Positions 13,008-31,748 of a stretch of DNA of 42,023 nucleotides are shown here, piece by piece. Under the pieces are notes generated by a model. The model made no database searches. It was not told the origin of the DNA and saw nothing but the letters and a program-made list of their open reading frames with translations. Position 1 is the first letter of the stretch. Each line of letters opens with the position of its first letter. Source of the stretch: Ruminococcus sp. (GTDB lineage: Bacteria; Bacillota; Clostridia; Oscillospirales; Acutalibacteraceae); assembly GCA_045533085.1 (NCBI GenBank), contig JAZSHE010000095.1, forward strand, positions 1 to 42,023, read 5' to 3'. Made by a program: the position numbers and the translations under genes.

Positions 13008-13038
13008 TCAAAATCTGAACTGCATAATCAAAGAATAG
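13008..13038 (+). repeat. 32-bp boundary repeat, copy A
   Basis: TCAAAATCTG-aactgca-TAATCAAAGAATAG. Confidence 0.85.
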
Positions 13039-13048
13039 CGAGTGAAAA

Positions 13049-13711
13049 TTATCTCTTGTCTGTTATCTTCTTTTCTATTCTTAAACAAGCTTCGATATGC
13101 ATAATCCAATGTCGTGAGAATGGCATCTGAATAAGTCCGCGTATATCCTTACCGAACCAGTAGTCAATCAGCCACAACGCATCCTCGCTATCGCTGACTA
13201 CATTGAGCTTTTCAAGTTTCTGTCTATGTTCGCTTGTTATTTTGGTTTTCAAATCCGTGAATCTGAGTGACATTAAGATATCTTCAGTAGACTTACTGAC
13301 ATCGCTGATGTAGTTAAATAACTCATCAATATTGAGAGACCTAGAAAACTCTGAAATCTCATCAGCGCTAAGCTCGTTACCCGTTGTAATTATAGGTGAG
13401 TTTGTTCGCGTTTCATAATCATTTGCAAAGAAAACCTGTTCATCACCTTTGATAAGTGTATGAGCTACAATATCTTCAATACGGAAAATGTGCCACAAGG
13501 AGTATGCAATACTTTTGCTGTGATATCCTTTTGCGTTTCTAAAAGGCATACTGCATAAATCTTCATCAGTAAGGTGCTCTTTGAGTTCTAATATTCTATT
13601 GAGCATGCTTTTGCGAAGATTCAAAAGTGTTTGTATACCCGTGTAAAAAGTATCACTTTTTTTGAGGTATACTTGCACCGATTTATTAAGTTCAGACCAC
13701 TCTTTGTTCAT
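13049..13711 (-). CDS. DinB/YfiT-like putative metalloprotein
   Basis: SIAYSLWHIFRIED and RHWIMHIE His motifs. Own promoter TTGACA-17-TACACT at 13770-13742. Confidence 0.7.
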   Translation of the reverse strand: MNKEWSELNKSVQVYLKKSDTFYTGIQTLLNLRKSMLNRILELKEHLTDEDLCSMPFRNAKGYHSKSIAYSLWHIFRIEDIVAHTLIKGDEQVFFANDYETRTNSPIITTGNELSADEISEFSRSLNIDELFNYISDVSKSTEDILMSLRFTDLKTKITSEHRQKLEKLNVVSDSEDALWLIDYWFGKDIRGLIQMPFSRHWIMHIEACLRIEKKITDKR

Positions 13712-13771
13712 GCAATCACCACACAAATCACTTATGTAAAAAGTGTAGCTTAGTGAGTGTTCATTGTCAAG

Positions 13772-13803
13772 CCAAAATCTGCACAGCTTTAATCAAAGAA
13801 TTG
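13772..13803 (+). repeat. 32-bp boundary repeat, copy B
   Basis: CCAAAATCTG-cacagctt-TAATCAAAGAATTG. Confidence 0.85.
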
Positions 13804-13874
13804 ATGACATTTAAAATTTGATGTGATATACTAAAACATAGCATTCTTGAATAATAAAAGTAAAAGGTGATACT

Positions 13875-14405
13875 ATGAACTTCAAAGAAATCGCAGAAAA
13901 CAGGCAGTCATGCCGAGCATATAACAGTGAACGTATGGTAGAGAAAGAAAAGCTCGACGCAATTTTAGAGGTAGCAAGGTTTTCGCCATCCGCTTGCAAC
14001 GGTCAGCCTTATCACATTACAGTGTGTACTGGTGAAACAGCAAAGAAGGTTGCAAAAGCAACTCAGGGAATGGGACTTAACAAGTTCGCACCTGACGCAC
14101 CTGTCTTGCTCGTAATCTCCGAAAAGCCTTATGTTAAAACCGCAGCTCTCGGTGCAAAAAGAAAGAAGAACGACTATCGTTCAATGGATATCGGAATTCT
14201 CACTGCGTACATCACGTGTGAGGCTACTGCACAGGGTTTGGGGACTTGTATCCTCGGTTGGCTTGACGATGAAAAAATCCGTGAGCTGTGCAATCTTGAC
14301 GGCACAGTGCGACTTGTAATCACCCTCGGTTATGCAAAGGACGACGACAAACTCCGTACCAAAAAGCGTAAAGATATAGACGAACTCGTAAGTTTTATCG
14401 GATAA
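13875..14405 (+). CDS. Nitroreductase-family protein
   Basis: RQSCRAY, SPSACNGQPY and GLGTCILG motifs. Confidence 0.92.
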   Translation: MNFKEIAENRQSCRAYNSERMVEKEKLDAILEVARFSPSACNGQPYHITVCTGETAKKVAKATQGMGLNKFAPDAPVLLVISEKPYVKTAALGAKRKKNDYRSMDIGILTAYITCEATAQGLGTCILGWLDDEKIRELCNLDGTVRLVITLGYAKDDDKLRTKKRKDIDELVSFIG

Positions 14406-14440
14406 ATAAAGCTTAAGTTACCGAGAAAGGGAAGATCATA

Positions 14441-14824
14441 ATGAACACATTTGATAATACCAAATACGAATCAGAAGTAAAAGAACGCTTCGGCAAAACA
14501 CAAGCCTACAAAGAGTTTGAGCAGAGAACAGAAAACCACACAAAAGCTGATTTTGCAAATTCCGCCGATGGTTTGGATAAAGTGATGAAGAAGTTTGCAG
14601 ATTGCAAAGTTGACGGACAAACTCCAGATTCAGAAAAAGCTCAGGCTGTTGTTAAAGAACTGCAAGACTTCATCACAAGTAACTTCTACACTTGTACCGA
14701 TGAAGTCCTAAAAGGACTCGGACAAATGTATGTTGCCGATGAACGCTTTAAAGCTAACATCGACAAACACGTTGTCGGCACTGCTGAATTCATATCTAAA
14801 GCCATAGAAATCTACTGCAAATAA
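14441..14824 (+). CDS. Stand-alone TipAS antibiotic-recognition domain protein
   Basis: EVKERFGKT, GLGQMYVADERF and GTAEFISKAI match the TipAS domain; no MerR HTH. Confidence 0.85.
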   Translation: MNTFDNTKYESEVKERFGKTQAYKEFEQRTENHTKADFANSADGLDKVMKKFADCKVDGQTPDSEKAQAVVKELQDFITSNFYTCTDEVLKGLGQMYVADERFKANIDKHVVGTAEFISKAIEIYCK

Positions 14825-14865
14825 CGATAATCACAACTTACGTTGTATATAACAGAGGTGTTAAA

Positions 14866-15384
14866 ATGGATTTTGAAAAACTGATTGATGAGCGATATTC
14901 CGTGCGTAATTTCAAGCCTGAACATTTACCTCAGACGGTGATTGATAAAATCCTCGAAGCAGGGCACAAAGCACCAACAGGCTGTAATTATCAACCACAG
15001 AGAATACTTGTTTTGAATACGGATGAATCTATCGAAAAGCTGAAAGAGTGTACTAAATGTCATTTCAACGCACCAACTGCTATGCTTGTTTGCCATAATA
15101 GGGATGAAAGCTGGAAACGTGTGTATGACGGTGCACTTTCTTCTCCTGTTGATGCTGTGATTGTCACAACATATATGATGCTAGCAGCTCAGAACGAAGG
15201 GGTTGGCACCTGTTGGGTTATGCATTTTGACCCTGCTAAGATGTGTGAAACTTTCAGTATTCCTGAAAACGTTGAGCCTGTCGCATTGCTTGTTATGGGT
15301 TATCCATCAGATGATGCAAAACCACTCGACTTGCATTTTGAATCCCGACCAATTGACGAAATAGTCACCTACGATAGTTTTTAG
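14866..15384 (+). CDS. Nitroreductase-family protein
   Basis: RYSVRNF, APTGCNYQP and GVGTCWV motifs. Confidence 0.92.
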   Translation: MDFEKLIDERYSVRNFKPEHLPQTVIDKILEAGHKAPTGCNYQPQRILVLNTDESIEKLKECTKCHFNAPTAMLVCHNRDESWKRVYDGALSSPVDAVIVTTYMMLAAQNEGVGTCWVMHFDPAKMCETFSIPENVEPVALLVMGYPSDDAKPLDLHFESRPIDEIVTYDSF

Positions 15385-15418: not shown

Positions 15419-15649
15419 AATTTTTTATCACTTACTTCATCAATCATAAATGAGTGATGAAACGATAGTTCAGAATCCAATCCGTTAGTCTCGAAGATTA
15501 GAGTATAGGTAACTCGCGCACCTATACTCATTTTTATTTGTCTATATATCCTTGAAATAATGGTGTTTATGTTTTATTATAAAAAGAACATAGACAAACT
15601 TTTTACGATACTGATGATACAATAATAACGCAGAGACGGGGATGCAGAT

Positions 15650-16828
15650 ATGAAATATAAAAATGCAGGAGCAATTCTTCCTAGTGAGCTGATTGAAGAA
15701 ATCCAGAAATATATTCAGGGTGAGTTTTTATACATTCCTAAAAAGGATAAGCAAAGAAAAAGGGCTGTCACCGAGTACAAAATTGAGCTTGAAAAACGAA
15801 ACAACAGAATCTACAAAATGCACCTCGAGGGAATGAGCAACGAGCAGTTAGCTCGAAATTTCAGCTTGGCTCAGTCGAGTATCAGAAGAATAATTATTGA
15901 GCAAAGGAAAAGGTTTGAGATTATGTCAACTAAAATTAATTCCTTGTTGCCACACTGGGGTTTGCAAAATGAAAACATAACGCAGATTTATTCGTCTGTA
16001 TGGCAGATTGGCGAAAGCTATGTGCTGAAAGTATATGACGAACCTGAGTCTCTAAAAAGAAATATTACGATAAATCAGCACTTGCACGATATGGGCATAC
16101 CTGTCGGTAAGCTCATATACACCTCAAAAGAAGAACAGTACATAGAAGCTGACGAACAGTATTTCTTTGTGTCGGAAAAGCTTTCGGGAAGTAATATCAT
16201 CAGCCTGAAATTCGGAGATAAAACAGCCGAGATAATGGGCGAAATTATTGCAAATTTGCACATTGCGTTTGAAAGTCTTGAAAGTAAGACTGAGGTCTGG
16301 GACAATAGCTTGTTGTGTGAGATGAATGGTTGGGTGAAGGAAAGCTTTGAAAAAAGCGGATGGCAGAATCTGAGCTGTGACGACTACGAAATGGTTGTTG
16401 AAAATCTTGAAAAGTTCTATGAAAAACTGCCTGCACAGCTTATTCACAGAGATGTACATTTTGGCAACTTTCTTTTTGATAAAGGAAATTTCAGCGGTTA
16501 CATAGATTTCGATTTAAGTCAGAAGAACGTCAGGATTTTTGATTTGTGCTATTTTGTTCTGTCGGTTTTATCCGAGAAAGAGAAGTTTGAAATTAATGAG
16601 ATAAAGTGGTTCGATTTCACAAAAAATGTTTTTGCTGGTTATAGCAAAATCTTACCTCTTACTGCAGAACAAAAAGGAACTGCGGTATTTGTTATGGAGT
16701 GCATCGAGCTGTTGTCCCTAGCATATTTTGAGGGGCAGGAAGACACCGCTCTGGCAAAGAGCACATACGATGTTTTCAAATTTATCAATAAAAACGAAAG
16801 AAGAATCACAAGGCTATTACAAAAATAA
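15650..16828 (+). CDS. Fusion of a CD3324/Mor-like HTH domain with an APH/choline-kinase-family phosphotransferase
   Basis: N-terminal MKYKNAGAILPSELIEEIQKYIQGEFLYIP...LARNFSLAQSSIRRII; kinase motifs IHRDVHFGNFL and IDFD. Confidence 0.82.
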   Translation: MKYKNAGAILPSELIEEIQKYIQGEFLYIPKKDKQRKRAVTEYKIELEKRNNRIYKMHLEGMSNEQLARNFSLAQSSIRRIIIEQRKRFEIMSTKINSLLPHWGLQNENITQIYSSVWQIGESYVLKVYDEPESLKRNITINQHLHDMGIPVGKLIYTSKEEQYIEADEQYFFVSEKLSGSNIISLKFGDKTAEIMGEIIANLHIAFESLESKTEVWDNSLLCEMNGWVKESFEKSGWQNLSCDDYEMVVENLEKFYEKLPAQLIHRDVHFGNFLFDKGNFSGYIDFDLSQKNVRIFDLCYFVLSVLSEKEKFEINEIKWFDFTKNVFAGYSKILPLTAEQKGTAVFVMECIELLSLAYFEGQEDTALAKSTYDVFKFINKNERRITRLLQK

Positions 16829-16843
16829 AAAGGAGAATTACAG

Positions 16844-17689
16844 ATGTTAAAAATTACAGATAATTTTGATTTACAGGATGTTTATGACTTTCAGCTTGGA
16901 TTAAAAACACCATACTTTTTTTGCGTAAGTTTTGATACTTGGAAGAAGTCATTTGAGGAAGATATCGACGGCGAAGGCAGAGTGTTGTTTAATGAGCTTG
17001 ATGTAAAAGCTGTTTATGATGAAGATGTGCTTTTAGGCTTTGTTCAGTACGGCAAAACTGCATTTGGATTTGCAGACAATGGCGAGATTTCAAGCGAAAT
17101 TTCTTACCCTATCATCTGCAATCTTTATTTCAAAGAAGACAGAGCAGATGCAGGAGAACTGCTTTTAAACGAAGCGATGAAAAGCTTGGGCGAAGAGAAC
17201 AGAGTTTATGCGTTCTTCCATTACTTTGGTATGACTTGCTTTGCACGACACGGCAAGCTATTTGAAAATCACGCTCATATTGAAGCTTTGCTTAAAGTTA
17301 ACGGCTTTGAACTTGAACACGAAAATGTGTATTACTCATCTGTTTTAAGTGAGAGTGAAAATTCAGAGGTAGTTCTAACCGCTAACGATTTGACAAAGGG
17401 CAATCAACAGTACATTGATTTTAAAATCGACGGAAATCAGGTAGGCGGTTGTGAGGTGCATTATCTTGATGACACCACAGCATACCTTCGTTGGATATAT
17501 GTAAACGGTGATATCGTGGGCAAGGGTATCGGCACAAAATGTATGACTACGTTAAAGAGCTTTTTATACGAAAAAGGTATCAGAAGATTCGACACCGACA
17601 CAGCTCTTGATAACAAAATTGCTCAGCATTACTATGAGAAAAACGGCTTCATCCGTGAGGGAATTACCAGAAGCTACTATACAGCCTGA
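16844..17689 (+). CDS. GNAT-family acetyltransferase
   Basis: C-terminal GKGIGT acetyl-CoA motif and N..AQHYYEKNGF. Confidence 0.85.
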   Translation: MLKITDNFDLQDVYDFQLGLKTPYFFCVSFDTWKKSFEEDIDGEGRVLFNELDVKAVYDEDVLLGFVQYGKTAFGFADNGEISSEISYPIICNLYFKEDRADAGELLLNEAMKSLGEENRVYAFFHYFGMTCFARHGKLFENHAHIEALLKVNGFELEHENVYYSSVLSESENSEVVLTANDLTKGNQQYIDFKIDGNQVGGCEVHYLDDTTAYLRWIYVNGDIVGKGIGTKCMTTLKSFLYEKGIRRFDTDTALDNKIAQHYYEKNGFIREGITRSYYTA

Positions 17690-17697: not shown

Positions 17698-17729
17698 TCA
17701 GAATCTGACCAGCAGTAATCAAAGAATAG
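17698..17729 (+). repeat. 32-bp boundary repeat, copy C
   Basis: TCAGAATCTG-accagcag-TAATCAAAGAATAG, 8 nt after the GNAT stop codon. Confidence 0.85.
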
Positions 17730-17846: not shown

Positions 17847-17856
17847 GGTGGATGAA

Positions 17857-18132
17857 ATGAACACAACAGATGTAGCTCTTATTTGCAAAGCACTCTCGGA
17901 TAACAACCGTTTGCAGATTGTTCAGATGTTATCTGGTGGTGAAAAATGCGGTTGCAAATTGCTGGAAGCTTTTGATATTACACAGCCAACGCTTTCTCAC
18001 CATATGAAAATTTTATGCGAATGCGGACTTGTAAACAGTAGAAAAGAAGGCAAGTGGCATCACTATTCCATAAACACGGATGGATGGAATGAATTTTATG
18101 GGTTTATAAAAACTATTGGAAAGGTGTGCTAA
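17857..18132 (+). CDS. ArsR/SmtB-family repressor
   Basis: KALSDNNRLQIV, EKCGCKL (metal-binding CxC) and QPTLSHHMKIL. Confidence 0.93.
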   Translation: MNTTDVALICKALSDNNRLQIVQMLSGGEKCGCKLLEAFDITQPTLSHHMKILCECGLVNSRKEGKWHHYSINTDGWNEFYGFIKTIGKVC

Positions 18133-19076
18133 ACGTGGAAGAAAGAGCAAAGAAAATTATTGACGCTTGTGTAGAAGAAACGAGCAAAAACCCGATAGAG
18201 ATATTTTATAATATAGCAAGCAAGGATTTTGTCAGAATCCATGGACCTGAGCACCATGTGTTAGATGGTGCAGCTCTGCTCACTGCTTTTTATAACGCAG
18301 GTGGAGAGATTAACTTGGCTGAAAGTTTAACCGAGCTTATGAAAAGAGGAATACAGATGCCTGGTGCAACCTGCGGTATGTGGGGTGTTTGCGGTGCGGT
18401 CAGCTCGATGGGTGCAGCTTTGTCTATTATAGACGGCACAGGTCCGTTGAGCACTGATACTTCGTGGGGAAAGCACATGGAGTTTACCTCAAAAGCACTG
18501 CATAGCTTGGCACAGGTTGGCGGTCCGAGATGTTGCAAAAGGGATGCGTTTTTGAGCTTCCAAACAGCGATTGAGTTTATAAACGAGAACTACGATGTGC
18601 AGTTAGAAAGCGGTAGCATTGAATGTCATTTCAGCGAAAAGAACGCACAATGCATCAAAGAAAAGTGTCCGTTTTATAAAAAGCCGAAGAAAAAGGTGGC
18701 GTTTATCTGCGTGCATAATTCTTGTCGTAGTCAGATTGCAGAAGCTTTGGGAAAGCACTTGGCAAGTGACGTGTTCGAGTCATATTCTGCAGGAACTGAA
18801 ACGAAACCTCAAATCAATCAGGACGCAGTTCGCATTATGAAAGAGCTGTACAAAATTGATATGGAGCAGACACAGTATTCAAAGTTGATTACGGATATAC
18901 CAAGCGTAGATGTAGCAATTTCGATGGGTTGTAATGTGGCTTGCCCGTTCATCGAAAGAGGATTTGATGACGATTGGGGACTAGAAGACCCGACAGGAAA
19001 ATCCGACGAAGAGTTCAAGAAAATAATCGCTGAAATCGAGCGTAGAGTTTTAAGACTTAAAGATGAACTGGTGTAG
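18126..19076 (+). CDS. DUF5714-like Cys-rich domain fused to an arsenate reductase (ArsC, LMW-PTP fold)
   Basis: N-terminal HGPEHH, CGMWGVCGA and GGPRCCKR; C-terminal FICVHNSCRSQIAE, MGCNVACP and WGLEDP. Confidence 0.85.
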   Translation: MLNVEERAKKIIDACVEETSKNPIEIFYNIASKDFVRIHGPEHHVLDGAALLTAFYNAGGEINLAESLTELMKRGIQMPGATCGMWGVCGAVSSMGAALSIIDGTGPLSTDTSWGKHMEFTSKALHSLAQVGGPRCCKRDAFLSFQTAIEFINENYDVQLESGSIECHFSEKNAQCIKEKCPFYKKPKKKVAFICVHNSCRSQIAEALGKHLASDVFESYSAGTETKPQINQDAVRIMKELYKIDMEQTQYSKLITDIPSVDVAISMGCNVACPFIERGFDDDWGLEDPTGKSDEEFKKIIAEIERRVLRLKDELV

Positions 19077-19117
19077 TGATTATCAGAAGAAAGTATATTT
19101 AAGACAGGAGAATTCTT

Positions 19118-19555
19118 ATGAATCATATAGAATTAGCAAATTACTATTTTGAGCAGAAGTTTCATTGCTCACAGGCTGTGCTTGCGGCATTTGCAGGAGA
19201 GCTTGGATTGAGTGAAGAACAAGCGTTAAAGTTAGGTGCTTGTTTCGGTGGCGGTATGTGCAAGGGCGAAGTGTGCGGAGCTTGTACTGGAGCGTTGATG
19301 GCGTTAGGATTAAAATACGGTCAGTTTGATGTTACTGATGTAGCGAGCAAAGAAATGACAAACGAAGTCGCAGTGCAGTTTCTTGAAATGTTCAAGAAAG
19401 AAAACGGCTCTTACATCTGCAAGGAACTGTTAGGCTGTGATATAGCAACATCGGACGGCAAACAGTACGCAGTTGAAAACAATCTGTTTGTTAAGTTTTG
19501 TCCTAAGATGGTTCAGTCAGCTACAATTATTGCTGAAAAATTACTTAAAGGTTGA
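19118..19555 (+). CDS. C-GCAxxG-C-C family putative redox protein
   Basis: HCSQAV, FGGGM, CGACTG, ICKELLG and FCP motifs. Confidence 0.9.
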   Translation: MNHIELANYYFEQKFHCSQAVLAAFAGELGLSEEQALKLGACFGGGMCKGEVCGACTGALMALGLKYGQFDVTDVASKEMTNEVAVQFLEMFKKENGSYICKELLGCDIATSDGKQYAVENNLFVKFCPKMVQSATIIAEKLLKG

Positions 19556-19641
19556 TGGCAAAATTCTCACTGTCATCGTAATTTCATTATTAATATTGCT
19601 ACTATTTACTTTGAGTTAAAAAGCAGAAAGAGGCTGTATAT

Positions 19642-20043
19642 ATGGAAAACACTAAAACACTGGAAGAAGTAAGAAGAATATTTGAAGGCGATAGGTTCGC
19701 AACAGAAAACGGAGCTGTTATAGAAGAATTTGGTGATCATAGCGCTACTTGCAGTTTGCTTATTACAGATTCGCATCGTAACGCTATGGGAGCAGTAATG
19801 GGCGGTACGTATTTTATGCTTGCGGATTTTGCTTTTGCCGTTGCAGCTAACTGGAAGAAGTTTGGATGTGTGTCATTACATTCTGATATTTCTTTCTTGT
19901 GTGCAGCCAAGGGCGAAAAACTGATTGCTAAAGCAGTTTGCGTCAAAGACGGAAGAACCACAGCTTGTTATCGTGTGGATGTGACCGATGAATTAGGAAA
20001 TCTTACCGCTACGGTAACTATAACAGGTTATCATATCGATTGA
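19642..20043 (+). CDS. PaaI-family thioesterase
   Basis: HRNAMGAVMGGTYFMLADFAFA hot-dog motif. Confidence 0.9.
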   Translation: MENTKTLEEVRRIFEGDRFATENGAVIEEFGDHSATCSLLITDSHRNAMGAVMGGTYFMLADFAFAVAANWKKFGCVSLHSDISFLCAAKGEKLIAKAVCVKDGRTTACYRVDVTDELGNLTATVTITGYHID

Positions 20044-20280
20044 CATAATGATTTAGATTAACTCGAAATGCTTAAAACTGAAAAATTTCTTTTTTTATAT
20101 TACTTAAGGATTATTTAATAATTAATATTTATAATGTAATCACTGAAGAAAAATTCAGTAAATAATTATAATTTAGAGAGGGCTACAAAAGCCTTTGTGA
20201 TAACTCTGTAAAAACTAATGAATTTAAAGGAGGGTGATGATGACAAAAGCTGATAAATATAAAGACCTATTTACTAAAGA

Positions 20281-20386
20281 ATGCAACATTGCAAAGTAAA
20301 ACTTGTTATGTTGTATTTTTGTTGTATGTACAGTTGTTGAGATTTAAGGTGTTGTGGTACAATTAGCTTGATAGATTTGAATTTGT
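20281..20386 (+). repeat. Terminator+promoter module, copy 1
   Basis: ATGCAACATTGCAAAGT...ATGTTGTATTTTTG...CAGTTGTTGAGATTT...TGTGGTACAAT, near-identical to the copies at 22558 and 24598. Confidence 0.9.
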
Positions 20387-20401
20387 GGAGGCGGCTGAAA
20401 T

Positions 20402-20950
20402 ATGAATATCCGACTTCTTGAAAATGCAATGGATATTAGAGAATCTTTTATAAGTCATTTTGTTATGCCTTGGGAAGAATTCAAAATTCAGCATAAAGAA
20501 TGGATTGATGAAAATTCGAAAACTGACTATCCTATAGATAATGAATGGTATAAAAACGCCTATATGTGGGATAGAATGAGTCCGGATTACCCGTCCGTAT
20601 CTATGGAAGATGCATTAGCTTTTTTGTGTAAAAACAGCGGTCTTGTTCTTTTTATGACTGAGAAAGATGAAGAGGTTTATTATCAAGGCGAAAACCTTAT
20701 CAACTTTGTCGCTGAAGCTGATGTACATACCTTAGCTAAGCAGATTGAGAAGGAATGGTATGACTCTTATAGATTAGCGGAACAAAATATGTATGATCCC
20801 GAGATGTTTTTACCAGAGGATTTGTATGTATTTGATTTGTCTATGAAATGGTGTGTGGTTTTTACCCACGAAATTACAGATTATGAATCAGAATGTGAAA
20901 ATCCAATGAAAGCCGCAGAAAGTAGAGTATGCATTATCTGCAAGGCTTAA
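20402..20950 (+). CDS. Hypothetical protein (DUF4275-like)
   Basis: Good RBS; C-terminal DLYVFDLSMKWCVVFTHE resembles DUF4275. Confidence 0.6.
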   Translation: MNIRLLENAMDIRESFISHFVMPWEEFKIQHKEWIDENSKTDYPIDNEWYKNAYMWDRMSPDYPSVSMEDALAFLCKNSGLVLFMTEKDEEVYYQGENLINFVAEADVHTLAKQIEKEWYDSYRLAEQNMYDPEMFLPEDLYVFDLSMKWCVVFTHEITDYESECENPMKAAESRVCIICKA

Positions 20951-21002
20951 ACACAGTTTGACAACCCCAAAATTTATAGAACACAAAAGTGTTTGATAAT
21001 TC

Positions 21003-21031
21003 TTGACAAAATTTAGTTTTAGGTGTACCAT
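21003..21031 (+). promoter_or_regulatory. Sigma-A promoter
   Basis: TTGACA-17-TACCAT, 10 nt upstream of the riboswitch. Confidence 0.75.
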
Positions 21032-21041
21032 AGGGTAAACC

Positions 21042-21134
21042 CATGAGGGAGTAGCAAGCGGTAATGTTCCGTAGCAAGTCAACATCCTGGCAGTTTTAAA
21101 ACTGTCTGGCTTGTTTTAAATTGCCAGACTCATG
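21042..21134 (+). ncRNA. yybP-ykoY (Mn2+) riboswitch
   Basis: P1 CATGAG/CTCATG closing stem, conserved GGGAGTAGC, GTCAACAT and 3' TTGC-AGAC. A terminator hairpin at 21177-21215 lies before the next gene. Confidence 0.8.
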
Positions 21135-21176
21135 TATAGAGAATAGCTATACATTGAGTCCATATATCTGATTGTA

Positions 21177-21215
21177 AACCCAAGTATAGCTTTTGGCTGT
21201 GCTTGGGTTGTTTTT
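21177..21215 (+). terminator. Riboswitch expression-platform terminator
   Basis: AACCCAAGTATAGC-tttt-GGCTGTGCTTGGGTT followed by T's. Confidence 0.75.
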
Positions 21216-21236
21216 ATATCGAGAGGAAAGAGAATT

Positions 21237-21719: not shown

Positions 21720-21757
21720 TAAATCAGTCTGCAAATTTATAATAGCGGAGGGTATTT

Positions 21758-21988
21758 GTGAGTAAGAAAAATAAAATTAATTTATATATTACGTTGTTGA
21801 TTTTAGGACTACTGGTGTTTGTATCTGAGGTGTTTATATTTCAGAAACCAGACGGAATAGCAGGTCTTATCATATGTTTAATCAGCATTTATCTGATTTT
21901 GGGAAGCGTTATAAAACTCTGTAAGTTAAGTGAAACATTCACTGATATGTTCTTCGGTTTCATAGATTTATTATTCTGGTTGCCGTAA
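21758..21988 (+). CDS. Small 2-TM membrane protein
   Basis: GTG start after GGAGGG; two hydrophobic helices. Confidence 0.7.
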   Translation: MSKKNKINLYITLLILGLLVFVSEVFIFQKPDGIAGLIICLISIYLILGSVIKLCKLSETFTDMFFGFIDLLFWLP

Positions 21989-23918: not shown

Positions 23919-23944
23919 AGCCCAATTTATGAGGATGAAGTAAT

Positions 23945-24553
23945 ATGAGTTTTGATATAAATAAATTACAATGGACAAGAGAACCAAAAGACTATTCATT
24001 ATCTGCTGATAAAATCGAGATTGTCACAAATCCACACACAGATTTATGGCAGAGAACATATTATCATTTCAGAAACGACAATGCACCTGTGTTGCAGATG
24101 GAAACAGATGATAAGTTTTTCTCATTTACTGTAAAAACACAGTTTGAAAGCAAATGCAGATTTGACCAATGTGGAATTGTAATGTATCTCGATAGTGAGA
24201 ACTGGCTCAAAGGTTCTATTGAATATGAAAACGACAGATTTCAACATCTTGGCAGTGTTGTTACAAACAATGGATATTCGGATTGGGCAACTACTGAAAT
24301 TGATGCAAACATAAAATCGATGTGGTATAGATTCAGTCGTCGTGAAGATGATTACTGTATTGAGTGTTCAGAAGATGGCGTTACATTCAAGCAAATGCGT
24401 GTATGCCATATGTGGAATGGTAATGGTACAATCCGTTTTGGCATTTATGCGTGTAGCCCTGAAAACTCATCATTCAAATCAACATTTACGAATATGGAAA
24501 TCACAGAATGTAAATGGCTTGCTCACGATGGTCAGCAACCTGATTTGGAATAA
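23945..24553 (+). CDS. DUF1349 (concanavalin-like) protein
   Basis: TDLWQRTYYHFRNDNAP, FDQCG, SVVTNNGYSDW and GIYACSPE. Confidence 0.88.
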   Translation: MSFDINKLQWTREPKDYSLSADKIEIVTNPHTDLWQRTYYHFRNDNAPVLQMETDDKFFSFTVKTQFESKCRFDQCGIVMYLDSENWLKGSIEYENDRFQHLGSVVTNNGYSDWATTEIDANIKSMWYRFSRREDDYCIECSEDGVTFKQMRVCHMWNGNGTIRFGIYACSPENSSFKSTFTNMEITECKWLAHDGQQPDLE

Positions 24554-24597
24554 CAACTACCAATTTGAAGAACAGAAAAGTTAATAATTAATTTTAG

Positions 24598-24707
24598 ATG
24601 CAACATTGCAAAGTTGAACTGTGATGTTGCATTTTTGTTTTACTCTGCACAGTTGTTGAGATTTCAGGTGTGGTGTGATATTATTAACTAGATGAACTTG
24701 AATTTGG
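24598..24707 (+). repeat. Terminator+promoter module, copy 3
   Basis: ATGCAACATTGCA-aagttgaac-TGTGATGTTGCAT-TTTTG, TTGAGA-17-TATTAT, then ATGAACTTGAATTTGG. Confidence 0.9.
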
Positions 24708-24720
24708 CGAGGTGAAAGAA

Positions 24721-25140
24721 ATGTTAGAAATCAGATATGTTCAATCAGAGGATAAAGAGTTTTGGTATAGTCTCGATAAACATTTACCGGAACAAGAATT
24801 CGAAAATAAAGTTCGTGATAAAAGAGGCTATGTTTTATTAGATGACAATAAACCAATAGGGTTGTTGCGATATAATCTTTTTTGGGATAACACACCATTT
24901 TGTACTATGTTGTTTGTTGATTGGAATCATCAAGGAAAAGGTTATGGGCGAAAGCTTATGGAACATTGGGAAAAGGATATGAAATCCCTTGGGTATGGAA
25001 TGGTTTTGACATCGACACAGGTTGATGAAGATGCACAACATTTTTACAGAAAACTAGGTTATAAAGATTGTGGCGGGTTTGTAATAGATGTTAAGGGTTA
25101 TGAACAACCAATGGAGATGTTTTTAATTAAAGGGATTTAG
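24721..25140 (+). CDS. GNAT-family acetyltransferase
   Basis: HQGKGYGRKLM and AQHFYRKLGY motifs. Confidence 0.92.
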   Translation: MLEIRYVQSEDKEFWYSLDKHLPEQEFENKVRDKRGYVLLDDNKPIGLLRYNLFWDNTPFCTMLFVDWNHQGKGYGRKLMEHWEKDMKSLGYGMVLTSTQVDEDAQHFYRKLGYKDCGGFVIDVKGYEQPMEMFLIKGI

Positions 25141-25165
25141 ATAAATAGAATTCCAATTTGCAAGG

Positions 25166-25690
25166 ATGAGAAAAATGATTATTTTAATTACTGGTGCGTC
25201 ACATACAGGAAAGACGGCACTTGCACAAAAATTGCTTGAAAAATATAAATATCCGTACTTATCAATAGACCATTTGAAAATGGGCTTAATCCGTAGCGGT
25301 AACACGAAACTTACTCCAATGAGTGATGATGCTGATCTCACAGCTTACCTATGGCCTATCGTTCGTGAAATGATTAAAACCGCCATAGAGAACAAACAGA
25401 ATCTTATTGTTGAGGGTTGCTATATTCCTTTTGACTTTGCGAAAGATTTCGAAAAAGAATACCTTGAATATATCAGGTACTATTGCCTTGTGTTAAGTGA
25501 AAGCTATATCAAAAATCATTTTGCTGACATAAAGAAATATGCAAGTGTTATCGAAAACCGCTTGGACGATGAGGATTGTACACAGTTATGTGTATTAGAA
25601 GACAACGCTCGTTTTTTAGAGCTTGCTCAAAAGCACAAAGTGAATTATATCCTCATCGATGATGAGTACGAAATTGATATTGAATTATAA
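25166..25690 (+). CDS. P-loop kinase (adenylate/2-phosphoglycerate-kinase-like)
   Basis: Walker A GASHTGKT and IVEG motif. Confidence 0.85.
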   Translation: MRKMIILITGASHTGKTALAQKLLEKYKYPYLSIDHLKMGLIRSGNTKLTPMSDDADLTAYLWPIVREMIKTAIENKQNLIVEGCYIPFDFAKDFEKEYLEYIRYYCLVLSESYIKNHFADIKKYASVIENRLDDEDCTQLCVLEDNARFLELAQKHKVNYILIDDEYEIDIEL

Positions 25691-25762
25691 CGATAGTCCG
25701 CAGTTTAACTCTGATATATTCAGAGTGTGAGTTGCAGTGTGACTTAACGTAACGGAGATATT

Positions 25763-26579
25763 ATGAGTAATATTATAGAAATAACAGATTTCCTCGCTCC
25801 TGAGCTTGATGTATATGCACGGTTGACTGAAGTTCAGCTTTTAAACAGAGAGTTTCCCGAAAAAGGCATGTTTATAGCGGAAAGCCCAAAGGTAATAGAG
25901 CGTGCTCTTGACGCAGGGTATGGGCCTGTATCCTGCCTTATGGAGAAAAGGCATATTGAGGGCGAAGGTAAACAGATTCTTTCCAGAATAAAAGATGTTC
26001 CGATTTTTTGTGCAGAGTTTGATGTTCTTACACAACTGACGGGTTTCAAGCTGACTCGAGGTATGCTCTGTGCTATGAAACGAAAACCGCTTTTAAAAGT
26101 AAAAGAAATCTGCGAAAACAAAAGTAGAATTGTTATACTGGACAAGGTTATGAATCCTACCAATGTGGGTGCCATAATCCGCTCAGCTGCTGCACTGGGA
26201 ATGGACGCAGTAATCCTTACTGCGGGATGTTCAGATCCTTTGTACAGACGCTCGGCAAGAGTGAGTATGGGCACTGTGTTTCAGATTGACTGGACATTTT
26301 TAGACGACGATTGTCTTGACGAAATCAAAGACCTCGGATTTAAAACAGTAGCAATGGCACTTAAAGACAATTCTCTTTCTATCGATGACCCGATGCTGAT
26401 GAATGAAAATAAACTTGCAATCATTATGGGCACAGAGGGCGACGGACTTTCTGACAAAACTATATCTGATTGCGATTTTACCGTAAAAAATACCAATGTA
26501 TCACGGCGTGGATTCGTTGAATGTTGCTGCAGCTTCTGCGGTTGCGTTTTATCAGCTTGGTAATAAACACAACAGCTGA
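25763..26579 (+). pseudogene. TrmH/SpoU RNA methyltransferase with a +1 frameshift
   Basis: NPTNVGAIIRSA and IMGTEGDG motifs. The final motif IPMYHGVDSLNVAAASAVAFY is in another frame after the A6 run at 26485-26490, ending TGA 26577-26579. Confidence 0.85.
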
Positions 26580-26614
26580 AACTAAAAACTTGAATTACTA
26601 GAGGTTTCAAATTA

Positions 26615-26666
26615 TTGAGATTTCAGGTGTAGCGTGTTACAATCAACTTGATATACATGAATTTGG
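26615..26666 (+). repeat. Promoter half of the repeated module (partial copy)
   Basis: TTGAGA-tttcaggtgtagcgtgt-TACAAT, then ATATACATGAATTTGG. Confidence 0.8.
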
Positions 26667-26722
26667 ATATTGGTGATATAATGGCAAAAGATAAAAGTGT
26701 TGTGATTTCTAAGATGGATACC

Positions 26723-26754
26723 TAAAAATCTGATTCACAGTAAACAAAGATAAA
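26723..26754 (+). repeat. 32-bp boundary repeat, degenerate copy F
   Basis: TAAAAATCTG-attcacag-TAAACAAAGATAAA. Confidence 0.6.
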
Positions 26755-26786
26755 GCACTGAAGTTTTTATGAGCTTCAGTGCTTTT
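26752..26786. terminator. Intrinsic terminator
   Basis: AAAGCACTGAAG...CTTCAGTGCTTT. Confidence 0.75.
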
Positions 26787-27005
26787 GTGCATCAGGAAAA
26801 ATATTCAAAATATTTTTTATCTCAAAATAAATTTAGTTATATTTTAAAATTATTTTGACTTTATCGAATAACTCAAAATAAGAATTCAAAATGTGGTCAA
26901 AATTCTAGCAATTCTTCTGGAAGTGGGACAAACTGTAGTCGTTGGTGTTTTTTGAACGAATTGCTATCATTAAAATCTTAATGAAAATCAACAAGTTTTA
27001 AAAAC

Positions 27006-27047
27006 AAAAAACCGACCTGTATAGGTCGGTTTGTGGTCGAGGTGACA
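27006..27047 (-). mobile_element. Short att-like copy of the tRNA-Pro 3' end with terminator
   Basis: TGGTCGAGGTGACA (27034-27047) is identical to 27262-27275; adjacent hairpin AAACCGACCT..AGGTCGGTTT. Confidence 0.75.
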
Positions 27048-27261
27048 TACGATGAATAAAACAGAGAAAGATACCTCGTCTTTCCCCCTATTGTGTGAGC
27101 ATAAAAGTTTCATCTTTGCTCTCCCTAAAAACGCTACACTGTAGCGTTTTTACCTTCGTCGATGCGTTCCACATCTCCTCGGCACGCTCGCCTTCAAGTC
27201 ACTGTCACCTCTCAAGACAAATAGAAAAGAAGATACCCAAATGGGTATCCGCTATTTTCCA

Positions 27262-27306
27262 TGGTCGAGGTGACAGGACTTGAACCTGCGGTATCCTGGT
27301 CCCAAA
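27262..27306 (-). mobile_element. 3' half of tRNA-Pro(UGG); attachment site of an integrated island
   Basis: Minus strand reads TTTGGG ACCAG GATAC CGCAGG TTCAAGT CCTGTC ACCTCG ACCA: anticodon loop, T-arm and CCA, with no 5' half. Confidence 0.88.
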
Positions 27307-27510
27307 GACGGAAAGAACAATATATTCCGCTTGTTTCTGACCCTAACCACTACATATAGTGGTCTTTGCTACACGAAAGCATACTCTTTAGCACTCTTAT
27401 CTACACTGTTTCCATGTACTCCAATTCCAGAAGTGGGACAAACTGTGGTCGTAAAAACTCCCTGAGAATGTGTTCAAAAAACACCTCCTCAGGGAGTACT
27501 TGTTTGTTGT

Positions 27511-27552: not shown

Positions 27553-27584
27553 TCAAAATCTGACCTGCTGTAACCAAAGAATAG
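27553..27584 (+). repeat. 32-bp boundary repeat, copy D
   Basis: TCAAAATCTG-acctgctg-TAACCAAAGAATAG. Confidence 0.85.
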
Positions 27585-27602: not shown

Positions 27603-28922
27603 TTAATCTAGTATACTAGACAGCTCTTTGATAGAAAGATTTAATTTTGCTGGAACGGCCTCATATTCTCCAGTTATGTATCTATGCTGTTTATTATGGT
27701 AAGGGTGAACTCGTTCTTCTTGAGCTGTGATACACTTTATTGTTCGAGTACCATTATCATCCTTTTTGATAGTATAGAAGGAACTAGAAGGTAAAATGGA
27801 CGAACTCATGATGTGTGTATTGTGTGTGGTAATTATTAATTGCCCTGAAAGTTCACTAAAAGTGTCTTCCAACAAATACTGTACCAATAAGTCGTGAATA
27901 CCATTATCGAGTTCATCAATTATAACCGTGTGACCTTTAGATGCGTTAATAAAGAAAGGGAGTAATTCTAATAGATTATGAGTACCTGTCGATTCAAGTG
28001 AAAAATCAATGTCTTTCACGGTGCCAGATATGGCTTGTCGAGTATATAACTCGTACGAAATTTTATCCTTCCTTGTTTTACGCTTATAGTAAACCTTTTT
28101 GATGTTTGGGTTTACTTTAGTTAAAAATTTGTTCAACATTTTTTCAGCTTTATCCAGCTGAGAGATGTCTTGTTCATGTATAGTTCCGGATTCTAATCTA
28201 GCGAGAATCGGATGAGCTAGTCCTAAAACTCCGTATTCAGGGGAATCAGCTTTTTTGACACGGCAAGAGAGTACGAAAAATTCTTCTAAACAAATAGAAA
28301 AATGTTCTGAAAAAGCTCCCTCTAAAAACTTACTTGATTTATCTGAGAACTCATGATAAATAATAGCGAGCAGTGAATGCTTGCCCCAATATTTTTCTAT
28401 ATTTATTTTAATATCAGCCAAAAGTGTTTTGTTTATAAATATTTTTTCGTTTAATTTAGTGTAGGTTTGTGATATATCAAAGTATAGTCCCTTATTTTTT
28501 TCAAGGGTATATTCCAATCTTTCATGTACAATTTCTTTATTGTCCGTTTCGATTAGATACTTTCCTTTTTTACCGTTTATGATGAATGAAAACTCCATCA
28601 GCAGATTACCAGTTGAATCTATAGTTCTGGAATCCTTAATAATAGTTTCAATATCTTTAAATCTACTCTTTAGCATTTCAAGAAAGCCCTCGTGCTGAGC
28701 GGCTTCTTTGTAGTTTTCCATTAATTCTTGAAACATATCTCTGACATCCATGGTGCGGATTAAATCAGCAAAGCAAAGAAAAATTGAAGCAAAATTTGAT
28801 TTACCTGCGCCGTTTTCACCATATAGTAGTACAAGATTTTTTGCTTTTGTACTATTTGAAGATAATTCTATAGTTGTATCAGTAAATGTTTTATAATTTT
28901 GCAAATGGATTGATGTGAACAT
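27603..28922 (-). CDS. AAA_21/ABC-type ATPase (RloA/AbiL-like)
   Basis: Walker A YGENGAGKSN, signature ESTGT, Walker B IIDELDNGIH and H-loop QLIITTH. ATG 28922 follows GGAGGG. Confidence 0.88.
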   Translation of the reverse strand: MFTSIHLQNYKTFTDTTIELSSNSTKAKNLVLLYGENGAGKSNFASIFLCFADLIRTMDVRDMFQELMENYKEAAQHEGFLEMLKSRFKDIETIIKDSRTIDSTGNLLMEFSFIINGKKGKYLIETDNKEIVHERLEYTLEKNKGLYFDISQTYTKLNEKIFINKTLLADIKINIEKYWGKHSLLAIIYHEFSDKSSKFLEGAFSEHFSICLEEFFVLSCRVKKADSPEYGVLGLAHPILARLESGTIHEQDISQLDKAEKMLNKFLTKVNPNIKKVYYKRKTRKDKISYELYTRQAISGTVKDIDFSLESTGTHNLLELLPFFINASKGHTVIIDELDNGIHDLLVQYLLEDTFSELSGQLIITTHNTHIMSSSILPSSSFYTIKKDDNGTRTIKCITAQEERVHPYHNKQHRYITGEYEAVPAKLNLSIKELSSILD

Positions 28923-29116
28923 TATAATCCCTCCGGCGAAAATTATATCATACAAAAACACGTTTGTCTAGAAAAATACGTCGAAAAATGAATAAAATGT
29001 AAATTATTGTAAGTTTTGCTTACAAATTCTCTAAAAATACTTGCTTTTTTATAGTTGTGTGATATACTTGTTTCAACATTTGGTAATTAGGAGGTAAAAC
29101 TAAAGGAGGGTCATTA

Positions 29117-30004
29117 ATGACTAATATTAAATTTTTGAGCTCAAAAAATTATGAGCCACAAGGTCCCAACTACGGAGATTGTATTATAATTGATACCGGC
29201 AGTGATTTGGTAATATACGATTGCGGTTGTGAGGAACACGCAAAGCGAGTAGAAGAGTATATGTGTGAACATAATTATGACCAAGCCATTGCAGTTCTTT
29301 CACATAACGATTCAGACCATTTTAAAGGGATTGAATATCTCGTGGAAAAACAGTTGTTATCCAAAATCTATACACAGTTATTTTTGAAACATAAAACTGA
29401 TATAGACAAGTTACTTGACGATGGTAGGGTTACAAACAAATCACTAGGTGACCGTATAAAGAAAGATTATGATAATATCGCAAGTTTAAGTGGGAAGGTA
29501 GAACTAGTGGATGCAATAGAATTAGGAGAGATAGTTTCAGGGGTTGAGATTGTCGGACCTGATAAAGATTATGCCTTAACAGTTGTAACTAAAGAGTTGG
29601 ATAACAGCGAAGGAGATACCATAGATACTGAGACAGCATATAATGCAGCCAGCGTTCAGGTATCGGTTGAATTAAAAGACAAAAAGGTATTACTATGTGG
29701 TGATGCTTCTTTTGAATCAATTAAAGATAAACTATGTGATTATAAGGTTATTCAATTACCTCATCACGGTAAGGCCGAAACAGCTGAGCTTATTTTTGAC
29801 GAAAAGAAAACAGAATTTGATACAGTGTATTTAGTCAGTGACAATACTGGCAACACAAATGGTGGCTCTGATAAGTTAAAAAAAGCGGGCAAACAAATAA
29901 AAAGTACTATTAACGGTGATATAACTTACCCGGACAACAGTCAAGGGAACCTTAAGGTAGGAAGAGTTTTGGGAATTACTGGAATGGGGTGGTTTTATAG
30001 ATGA
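29117..30004 (+). CDS. Metallo-beta-lactamase-fold hydrolase (ComEC/Rec2-like)
   Basis: GDC, YDCG, SHNDSDH, LLCGDA and LPHHG motifs. Confidence 0.88.
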   Translation: MTNIKFLSSKNYEPQGPNYGDCIIIDTGSDLVIYDCGCEEHAKRVEEYMCEHNYDQAIAVLSHNDSDHFKGIEYLVEKQLLSKIYTQLFLKHKTDIDKLLDDGRVTNKSLGDRIKKDYDNIASLSGKVELVDAIELGEIVSGVEIVGPDKDYALTVVTKELDNSEGDTIDTETAYNAASVQVSVELKDKKVLLCGDASFESIKDKLCDYKVIQLPHHGKAETAELIFDEKKTEFDTVYLVSDNTGNTNGGSDKLKKAGKQIKSTINGDITYPDNSQGNLKVGRVLGITGMGWFYR

Positions 30005-30447
30005 GATACCTCATTCAATCTTGTTTTGAACACGAACTCAAAGCTCGGCAGGAGTATTTAAACTCGGTTTTTAAGACGAATTTCATTGTGGTTGATAGAA
30101 ATCAGGCTTTTATTGAGCTACAAAGTTTTCCTCTTTGTGATGACCACATAATTCTCTTGTATGGCCACAATTATTGGATAGGACTTTTCTTTTCAATTTT
30201 TGGAGAAGGGATTAAGAACGACATAAAGGTCGTGACATCCTGCGATTTATTCGGATACAAGTCAGTACTAAAAGGGCAGAAAAATCTGTATTACTGCAAA
30301 GTCAATAAAGATGGGTATGTGGTATGTTATAAAGGCGAACAGTTTAATATGCCGTTTGATGTAACACAGTCTGAACTTGAGTTGCTTAATAATGCAGACC
30401 TTCCATTTGAAGAAAAAGTCAATTTTGCGTATAGGAGGGTTTCGTGA
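30001..30447 (+). CDS. Hypothetical protein
   Basis: Overlaps both neighbours by 4 nt; contains LLYGHN and VTSC. Confidence 0.75.
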   Translation: MRYLIQSCFEHELKARQEYLNSVFKTNFIVVDRNQAFIELQSFPLCDDHIILLYGHNYWIGLFFSIFGEGIKNDIKVVTSCDLFGYKSVLKGQKNLYYCKVNKDGYVVCYKGEQFNMPFDVTQSELELLNNADLPFEEKVNFAYRRVS

Positions 30448-31151
30448 TGAAGTTAGATATCTTTGATTCCTATAATATCAGAGCCAGAATAAGCGTAGTA
30501 TTATTTTTTATCATACCCTTTTTTGTTGACTGGCTGATTATTTTTAGTAGTAAGTTTACTGTTACAGAAAATCTTTTTGCAGTTGCTTTGTTAGTAATTA
30601 TATTTCAAAGCATATTAAATCTTAGTCGTCCGAAAGACAAGTGTTTTAGAGAAAATTATGTAACTGCAGCAAAGCTTCTAAATGTAAAATCTCAGTTGTC
30701 GGACATAACCAGAATGCGATACTATAGAAAATTAGCGACATTTGAACCTGAATTTTTGGATTTTAGTTGCCAGAAATCAGAATGGAATAATAAAATTACA
30801 GACGACTTATGTGAGAGTGCAGTAGTGTGGTTGCGCTCGAAAACCAGAGATAAAAATACCTTTTATCTAATTCACGAAGAAAATACAAATTATGGTTATT
30901 ACAGAAATATGTTTAATTTAAAAAAGGCAGGAATTATCCTGAATTGTGTAGCTGTCTTTGCCTTGGTGATAATGGTATTATGTCCACACTTTGATTCTTT
31001 CAAACCAAGCAATTTTGAGATGCTACTACTCGTAAGCATACACCTATTTCAAATAGTGTATTTGAGCTTGGCTATTACAAAAGATGCGGTTGAAACCGCC
31101 GCAAAGAGATACGCCAAGAGTTTAGTGGAGGCTATAGACATTATAGCCTAA
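30444..31151 (+). CDS. Multi-TM (about 4) membrane protein, putative defence effector
   Basis: Two TM pairs flanking a soluble loop with LRSKTRD...EENTNYGYYRN; N-terminal DSYNIRAR. Confidence 0.75.
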   Translation: MMKLDIFDSYNIRARISVVLFFIIPFFVDWLIIFSSKFTVTENLFAVALLVIIFQSILNLSRPKDKCFRENYVTAAKLLNVKSQLSDITRMRYYRKLATFEPEFLDFSCQKSEWNNKITDDLCESAVVWLRSKTRDKNTFYLIHEENTNYGYYRNMFNLKKAGIILNCVAVFALVIMVLCPHFDSFKPSNFEMLLLVSIHLFQIVYLSLAITKDAVETAAKRYAKSLVEAIDIIA

Positions 31152-31195
31152 TAGATAATAAAAATCAAAAATCCTTATACCAAATGTTAATTAAG

Positions 31196-31226
31196 ACCGT
31201 CTTATGCGAATGCATGAGGCGGTTTT
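31196..31226 (+). terminator. Intrinsic terminator
   Basis: ACCGTCTTATGC-gaat-GCATGAGGCGGT followed by T's. Confidence 0.75.
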
Positions 31227-31427
31227 GAGTTCTGTTTATGAGATACAAATTGTATCATTGTAATAATTTAATTAAAACATAACCTATAAGTAGTCCGTGA
31301 AAGTCTAGTGTAATATGTAAGTGGCTAAAGCTTGACCGATAGGATCATCTCACGAGCCTGTCGGTAACGATGAGTTCGTTTCTTTTTGCCCTCTTTTAGA
31401 ATAAAATTTTAAAAGGAGTAATATTTT

Positions 31428-31703
31428 ATGAAATCACTCAAAGAGTTAGTGATGAAAGAAACAAGACCAGTGTATTTGTATACACCATCAAAAGCGTTAG
31501 CTCGTGATTTTCTCAAAATAGCCGAAAAAGAATGCTTTTTATTTGGCGATGGTAAAAGACCGACTAAGAAACCATTAGATGATTACTATGCACTGCATCA
31601 GGAGCTGATTGTGAATTATATCGGGTTTGCTGGTAGATTGCGTTATTAAAGCATCGATGACGGAATATTAAGAGTTGAATACCAAGATTTGTTTAGAGAT
31701 TAG
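31428..31703 (+). pseudogene. Hypothetical protein with a probable premature stop
   Basis: Strong RBS. After TAA at 31647-31649 the frame stays open (SIDDGILRVEYQDLFRD) to TAG 31703. Confidence 0.5.
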
Positions 31704-31716
31704 AAAGTGCTAACGC

Positions 31717-31748
31717 TCAAATTCTGATCTGCATTAATCAAAGAATAA
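31717..31748 (+). repeat. 32-bp boundary repeat, copy E
   Basis: TCAAATTCTG-atctgcat-TAATCAAAGAATAA. Confidence 0.85.

Follow-up and report, generated by a model that had tools for sequence, protein, structure and literature searches.

How can blocks of genes be exchanged within an accessory region in which no recombinase gene is recognised? This question is raised by a 42,023-nucleotide stretch of DNA from Ruminococcus sp. (contig JAZSHE010000095.1 of assembly GCA_045533085.1), referred to here as the window, in which a short bipartite motif recurs. The original prediction, made from the letters alone, had proposed six directly oriented copies as recombination sites of excisable gene modules, served by a recombinase in trans. 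A motif scan of the whole window recovered all six at the predicted positions on the plus strand, namely A (13008-13037), B (13772-13802), C (17698-17728), D (26723-26753), E (27553-27583) and F (31717-31747), while no match was found on the minus strand of the window and none in its first 12.9 kb. A decayed seventh copy, G (15470-15500), which the prediction had missed, lies on the same strand. A Pfam scan covering 34 genes between positions 8953 and 41143 detected no recombinase, neither between the copies nor beside them, which fits the idea of an enzyme acting in trans. With a probability of roughly 0.55, we read the motif as a one-directional exchange site of islands inserted at tRNA-Trp and tRNA-Pro genes, at which a tyrosine recombinase, probably an island integrase, would recombine DNA within the spacer.

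Scored with a matrix built from the six copies, the copies themselves reach 28.8-37.1 bits, compared to a maximum of 17.9 bits in the reversed genome. The genome-wide matrix scan suggested as a check was performed with a second matrix, trained on motif sites from relatives, and yielded 15 sites in the 1.97-Mb, 265-contig assembly and none in the reversed control. The spacer between the arms comprises 7 nt in copy A and 8 nt in copies B, C, D, E and F. From 102 eight-spacer sites, collected with a pattern that demanded RC and tolerated one mismatch, the consensus TCAAAAWYTG-NNNYRC-WD-WAAHCAAAGAWA was obtained, which in its general form reads TCAAAAWYTG-NNNYRC-(1-2 nt)-WAAHCAAAGAWA. This is wider than the consensus described at first, so that the supposed spacer contains a near-fixed RC. 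The layout is 10 + 7/8 + 13, asymmetric and 30-31 bp long, with the two arms and the 6-8-bp centre of Xer sites; within it, CAAA is repeated at a spacing of 20-21 bp, and both arms are equally conserved at most junctions. A structured RNA was considered as well and dropped, since an Rfam scan of the window gave no structured-RNA match.

Evidence for exchange at the motif comes from its flanks. For 127 distinct sites, the 40-base flanks on both sides were clustered. Of the 18 left-flank groups with several members, 9 are combined with at least two right groups, and of the 23 right-flank groups, 14 with at least two left groups. On both sides, flank identity drops to background a few bases from the site. 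Within the window, the left flank of site B has three different right-hand partners in relatives, and all six of its homologues carry a site, while the right flank of site D occurs with three different left partners. The left flank of site E is 93-97% identical to a contig of a relative (G012:C7) with the switch at the site end, and its group is joined to four right flanks. At the place homologous to the decayed site G, an intact site is found in G069:C3 and a partly decayed one in G083:C42. As far as sequence comparison reaches, partner switching is well shown for the motif family in general and for the copies B, D, E and G, although the junctions are not all made there, and the sites of the window belong to a family of points at which accessory blocks switch partners between related gut bacteria. 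That exchange takes place at the site can be regarded as very probable.

The position of the switch was narrowed down by a linkage test on 283 distinct sites with near-identical flanks, which form 99 pairs with the same left flank, 105 with the same right flank and 47 with both. Position A7 of the left arm tracks the left flank (0.97 versus 0.76). The right flank, in contrast, is tracked by the final spacer bases, B4, B8 and the base directly past the arm (0.30/0.38/0.85/0.61 versus 0.59/0.69/0.99/0.93). This suggests that the partners change in the spacer, as had been predicted; the switch falls between left-arm position 7 and the spacer end, a range within which the exact bonds cannot be fixed and the pairs are non-independent. 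An empty and a filled allele were also found. Another contig of the same genome, C201, carries a single site at the place where two sites enclose 4,268 bp in G081:C102, and the two contigs match over 208 bp (86%) up to and through the site and over 339 bp (88%) from the first base of the second site. The insert contains a kinase/LytTR pair, a dockerin gene and one gene of no assigned function, and no recombinase. Both results support the earlier proposal that the sites are exchange points of gene modules. Furthermore, duplications in the complete genome G002 start or end at sites, as for example 294 bp with 98% identity from base 1 of two sites. Among 77 distinct alignment-end clusters in the window, 9 lie within 15 bp of a site, while such positions make up 2.3% of the region; this count adds little weight, since two of the nine are gene ends by A and C and the database is enriched for site-bearing loci.

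Taken together, the two-arm layout, the equal conservation of the arms, the position of the switch and the pair of empty and filled alleles suggest that direct copies recombine by a conservative, site-specific mechanism, and an enzymatic, site-specific exchange is considered likely. DNA flanked by two direct copies would leave as a circle with a single site, and this circle could re-enter at any resident site. Islands would thereby trade cargo as well as att (attachment-site), integrase, replication/excisionase and mobilisation blocks, and integrase-less arrays like the window would accumulate beside a tRNA gene.

A loose pattern of the motif was found in 117 of the 222 genus genomes, the control giving few matches, and a strict pattern matched 19 of 401 genomes of the class, the own genome counted, with no control match. 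None of the 35 regions examined had sites on both strands, and in 31 of the 35 the sites lie on the G-rich strand. The complete genome G002 contains 17 same-strand sites across 172 kb, with spacings from 492 bp to 32 kb, while the complete genome G041 contains none. A pattern scan of metagenomes gave 27 loci, none of them a same-species allele. Of 31 matches in viral contigs, about half were a single low-scoring match in an unrelated phage gene and were disregarded. A motif-like match within the coding sequence of one subgroup of the integrase gene intC, on the same strand (L045:14746, L342, L343), which may be a chance match or a usable internal site, was likewise excluded from the counts.

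Other copies of the motif in the own genome adjoin tyrosine integrase genes, and the neighbourhood in relatives is similar: within 3 kb of the sites, the integrase IntC was found in 67 loci, DUF6809 in 36, IntA/IntB in 19, HTH_36 in 17 and a large serine recombinase in 4. In loci fetched with IntC alone, 77 sites occur in 50 of 78 loci, all of them on the strand of the integrase gene, with none on the opposite strand and none in reversed DNA. IntC is present in 30 of the 38 genus genomes with at least three motif matches compared to 37 of the 184 others, a test that is inflated by kinship. A full tRNA-Trp gene was found in 30 of the 78 IntC loci, many more of which hold a half, and tRNA-Pro in 5 of 8 IntA/IntB loci. 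The halves of both tRNA genes break at a 7-bp overlap in the anticodon loop and are the true att cores. IntC and IntA/IntB therefore have ordinary att sites, and the motif as their att site was dropped as a candidate. All 65 pairs of a site and a tRNA half show one relative orientation, and among 27 loci fetched class-wide with the motif alone, 19 contain a tRNA-Trp piece or IntC within 1.5 kb. The motif sits between att, excisionase-like/HTH_36, RHH-MobP3, integrase and cargo blocks. Judging from these contexts, it is native to integrative islands of the tRNA-Trp and tRNA-Pro type.

With regard to the enzyme, an island tyrosine integrase is favoured because IntC is the commonest neighbour, is catalytically intact, retaining the catalytic R, HxxR, H and Y, and is the sole recombinase found in the array of G002 (G002:C1 1533000-1706000, L095-L104), where six intC copies are the only recombinase genes detected. 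Nonetheless, the assignment to IntC or to the IntA/IntB pair, taken by itself, stays tentative and somewhat below even odds. A serine recombinase was rejected as the enzyme, since it adjoins only 4 loci and none was found in the G002 array. Searches of plasmid and phage collections returned distant integrases only, with 23-28% identity among the matches listed. Three further observations concern these loci. The G002 array also contains three MobP3 modules, restriction-modification genes and, between two sites, a thiamine-synthesis-like cluster. Small DUF6809 genes (L049:14036-14317 and 35 other loci) are the most frequent neighbour other than integrases and lie nearly always on the strand of the site. 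Paralogues of IntC of about 345 aa, with the catalytic motifs retained but no N-terminal arm-binding part, occur in tandem (L265, L266, L270); they follow a full-length intC in L265 and L270 and form two groups in a quick, unfinished tree. Possibly they constitute a recombinase trio, with the short members as candidates for acting on arm-less sites.

Several findings weigh against an exchange of this kind, or against the island integrases as its agents. In the motif itself, the arms show weak dyad symmetry, and a fixed RC in the spacer is unusual for the overlap of a tyrosine recombinase. In the linkage test, the pairs are not only non-independent, but spacers are partly genome-specific and some assignments of a different flank are register shifts caused by indels. 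Only one of six empty/filled candidates is clean, the other five involving look-alike flanks. Neither A nor C nor F has a flank that was found to adjoin a site elsewhere: for A no homologous flank beside another site was detected, the seven homologues of its right flank and the six of the left flank of C are all without a site, and for F no homologue of either flank was found. Homologues of module G-C elsewhere also terminate without a site, the left flank of E carries a site in just 2 of 8 homologues, and the ATPase block right of E has a 65% homologue in G193:C10 with no site nearby. On contig C149 of the own genome, a gene block of 0.6 kb is separated by 2 bp from a site to its right, with no second site, which indicates that new junctions arise beside the site too. 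As for the enzyme, IntC and IntA/IntB own att cores in tRNA anticodon loops, so that a second substrate is an extra assumption; compared in register, the motif is unlike these cores, and the same motif adjoins integrases that are only about 25% alike. G020, a 100% complete genome, has sites and the core Xer as its sole tyrosine recombinase, and among the motif-bearing genomes of the class, five have no IntC match and five no IntB match.

An alternative is site-specific exchange through a recombinase supplied in trans, by a helper element or a conserved host protein, in place of the island integrases. One consensus is common to tRNA-Trp and tRNA-Pro islands with unrelated integrases and to at least one further integrase type, the island integrases possess att cores and arm repeats of their own, and sites persist in genomes without IntC or IntB. 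Nevertheless, besides IntC and IntA/IntB no recombinase recurs beside the sites, the large serine recombinase being limited to its 4 loci, and the core Xer has a different candidate site. Variants of the site, moreover, track IntC subgroups about 110 bp upstream, a pattern that linkage alone would yield. We consider a separate enzyme in trans unlikely, and of the alternatives it is the one that survives best.

Another explanation would be that the motif is a protein-binding site at module borders, for an excisionase, for replication or for regulation, and that the exchange is a rare homologous or annealing event over short homology. In phages, boundary sequences serve as such short-homology patches for module exchange. 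The spacing of the CAAA repeats suits head-to-tail binding, the motif often lies ahead of an HTH_17 excisionase-like gene, an HTH_36 gene or an integrase gene, at B it is placed between two back-to-back -35 boxes, and some junctions form beside the site. On the other hand, when 266 sites were classed by mechanical calls of open reading frames, 57 fell between convergent gene ends versus 42 between divergent starts and 69 inside called frames. A pure operator fits such numbers badly, and the transcription-factor site that had been named as the possible refutation finds little support, since positions between convergent gene ends are about as frequent for the motif as other positions. In addition, co-resident copies have only short perfect stretches in common, the distances to genes and att cores vary widely, and flank identity stops a few bases from the site on both sides. 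Altogether, a binding site with incidental homologous exchange appears improbable, slightly more so than a separate enzyme.

Far less credible is the explanation of the motif as the att site, or an arm-type site, of these island integrases, with the array resulting from tandem accretion of decayed islands similar to cis-mobilisable elements (CIMEs). Copies frequently flank a tRNA half at a distance of 160-500 bp, on one side or the other and in fixed orientation, integrative and mobilisable elements (IMEs) undergo tandem accretion and decay according to PMC5704250, and the window contains real remnants of a tRNA-Pro att. The att crossover, however, lies in the tRNA anticodon loop, G002 has 17 sites compared to 5 tRNA-Trp pieces, and five of the seven window copies are kilobases away from any att remnant. 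Of 30 loci with a tRNA-Trp gene, 25 have a different short repeat, outside of which the motif lies, no more than 600 bp from that gene (10 of 150 in the control), compared to 9 with the motif; this repeat is thus the better candidate for the arm site.

Least probable of all are pdif-like sites of the host Xer or sites like an origin of transfer (oriT) recombined by the MobP3 relaxase: although size and two-arm layout suit Xer sites (PMC5357621) and MobP3 modules are sometimes bracketed by the motif, pdif is rejected by the absence of the motif from complete G041, by its single orientation without inverted pairs in 35 of 35 regions and by a better, differing dif candidate, and oriT by the variable presence of the motif upstream of the RHH gene (within 1.5 kb in 8 of 35), its absence from 8 of 8 long MobP3-type relaxase loci and a separate conserved oriT-like element that, by eye, occupies this place. 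The dif candidate, a perfect inverted repeat of 12-6-12 layout, lies upstream of the only core Xer-like gene (about 330 aa) in 5 of 5 genus genomes (L294-L298); it may be the dif of a single-recombinase system or an autoregulatory site. In the own genome, which is 86.7% complete, the core xer gene was not found. The parallel with dif/pdif drawn at the outset is not supported in this genus, where the candidate dif is palindromic and different from the motif. The element upstream of the RHH-MobP3 operon comprises a short A/G-rich word, a hairpin and a second inverted repeat; it is conserved in short IME-type loci and in long loci of the ICE (integrative and conjugative element) type (L045, L051, L097-L101, L204, L332-L340 and others), and is a candidate for the oriT of this relaxase group. 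A scan of viral contigs for MobP3 gave no match.

Returning to exchange at the motif by an island recombinase, the window illustrates how the sites divide accessory DNA. Site A lies between convergent gene ends. Between A and B there is, as proposed, one gene with a putative promoter of its own: a DinB-like gene (Pfam DinB_2; 13049-13726, minus strand) with a sigma-70-like match (13742-13770, minus strand; consensus match only) whose -35 box, starting at 13770, abuts site B. A homologue (78% at the DNA level) in G118:C23 is bracketed by two sites 837 bp apart. A second sigma-70-like consensus match (13804-13832, plus strand) abuts the right end of B and is followed by module B-G with a nitroreductase, a TipAS-domain gene and another nitroreductase (13875-15384, plus strand; Pfam). 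To the right of G there is a hairpin of the type found right of other sites, and module G-C comprises a Mor/APH-family gene and a GNAT gene (15650-17689, plus strand; Pfam), with site C 8 nt past the GNAT stop. Four sites had been described as close to the stops at 13049, 17689, 27603 and 31703, and the gaps are indeed 11, 8, 19 and 13 nt, but the stop at 31703 closes a short frame and has another stop just upstream.

Module C-D consists of an ArsR-led cluster and small genes (17848-26563, plus strand), and is split by a second, unrelated repeat family. Members of this family, in which a promoter-like stretch comes after an inverted repeat, were found at 20259-20408, 22539-22670, 24573-24722 and 26612-26681, ahead of small genes between C and D, and two further copies lie on contig C184 of the own genome. 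Many alignment ends against relatives coincide with these repeats, which may represent a separate cassette-like system. The frame of a SpoU-family methyltransferase (25763-26563) in the same module is apparently frameshifted near its 3' end.

The segment right of site D points to a probable origin of the window. It begins with the inner end of a tRNA-Pro island on the attR side (26754-27047), which comprises a hairpin directly after the site, an arm-like repeat (26923-26940) and a 15-nt piece of the tRNA-Pro 3' end (27033-27047), and which is homologous to the DNA between a site and a full tRNA-Pro gene in G067:C11 and on the own contig C121. A 45-bp 3' half of tRNA-Pro(TGG) follows on the minus strand (27262-27306); it breaks after the anticodon loop and is the att remnant of a tRNA-Pro island. 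A second copy of the arm-like repeat lies at 27433-27450 on the plus strand, its role as an arm site being presumed, and E is the first site inside the att remnant. Between the two tRNA pieces, several short inverted repeats (27048-27261) split the att junction, and in tRNA-Trp loci the tRNA 3' duplicates are interrupted by inserts of a similar kind. Since D-E contains remnants of two successive islands, the inner end of the first and the 45-bp att half of the second, the window is probably an integrase-less stretch of a pile-up of islands at tRNA-Pro(TGG). A contig of a relative, G121:C7, unites the left-hand core genes of the window, shared cargo and the tRNA-Pro locus of C121. From synteny between contigs that are not joined, the intA-intB pair of this pile-up is probably located on C149 and the full tRNA gene on C121.

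Copies D and E had been assigned to the two ends of an operon of ATPase and metallo-beta-lactamase genes. The operon does lie between the sites at 27553 and 31717, but these are D and E only if the degenerate copy remains unlettered; as lettered here, D and E bracket 830 non-coding bases containing the tRNA-Pro att remnants, which had been overlooked in the prediction. Module E-F contains a gene for an AAA_21 (AbiEii-type) ATPase (27603-28961, minus strand; Pfam) and, on the plus strand (29117-31151), a metallo-beta-lactamase-fold gene with two genes of no assigned function. To the right of F (32609-39190), three C5 DNA methyltransferase genes, one of them fused to an LlaMI-type endonuclease domain, form a probable defence block.

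A literature search that included pieces of the motif sequence, with subscription journals mostly and supplements (e.g. the element ends of PMC12084326) outside its range, found no description of the motif, and the passages considered from PMC6907783, 10.64898/2026.01.13.699239 and 10.64898/2026.07.08.737213 contain nothing on this site. The gene-swapping system inside tRNA-inserted islands that the motif likely serves is apparently undescribed. As a short conserved site that marks exchange points, the motif allows islands to be divided into modules computationally. If the proposed exchange is true, it would account for the recombining of defence, stress and metabolic genes and of integration specificity; a pair of site and recombinase that tolerates spacer mismatch would furthermore be a tool for gut anaerobes that are hard to engineer. 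Integrative mobilisable elements account for a large share of the genomes of gut Oscillospiraceae, all such elements together amounting to 14-23% in Faecalibacterium (PMC12084326). Beyond the single site, a second-layer, integron-like system is conceivable though rather doubtful, in which a dedicated activity common to the island families would shuffle cargo, att, integrase and mobilisation blocks in arrays of more than 170 kb and give rise to new types of islands in a plug-and-play manner.

Compared with known systems, the motif combines features of several. Sites of the dif/pdif type have two arms of about 11 bp around a 6-8-bp centre. A dif site occurs in one copy per chromosome, pdif sites form inverted pairs around modules, and attC sites of integrons are palindromic and fold into a hairpin. 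The motif resembles the pdif sites and IMEX elements of XerC/D-dif recombination (PMC5357621) in its approximately 30-bp two-arm layout, its variable 6-8-bp centre and its recombinase-less modules. In contrast to dif and pdif, it differs from the candidate dif of the genus, never forms inverted pairs and is absent from some complete genomes. With integrons and clusters of attC sites lacking integron-integrases (CALINs) it has in common the arrays of directly oriented sites, often near stop codons, as well as single-gene units and integrase-less arrays. Unlike integrons, it has no IntI-type enzyme and no palindromic attC hairpin, being asymmetric and 30-31 bp long, and its modules have their own promoters, lie in either orientation and reach up to 32 kb. 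With the integron-integrase model (cut-off 265), IntA scored 38 bits and IntB 54 bits, while IntC gave no match.

Tandem accretion of ICEs, IMEs and CIMEs at tRNA att sites and the tyrosine-recombinase duos of MTnPi have been described (PMC5704250), and islands of Faecalibacterium form tandems and nests with exchange of modules (PMC12084326); in the passages considered from these two accounts, module exchange is reported with no internal exchange site. As in such tandems, tyrosine-integrase islands targeting tRNA genes, MobP3 modules, decayed remnants and integrase-less units between direct repeats are found here. The motif, by contrast, is a non-tRNA repeat inside the islands, occurs in islands that differ in their target and sets their att, integrase, mobilisation and cargo blocks apart. 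The tandem pair intA-intB of the tRNA-Pro islands recalls the MTnPi duos and the SE elements, which, according to PMC10214605, need tfp and srap, were found only in Gammaproteobacteria and are present in 1-2 copies. Unlike the intA-tfp-intB-srap core of SE, the genes intA and intB adjoin each other without an intervening gene (no search for srap was made), and the pair tracks the tRNA-Pro att, while the motif is common also without the pair. By analogy, the motif would act like the cassette site of an integron or of a pdif module, yet it belongs to neither.

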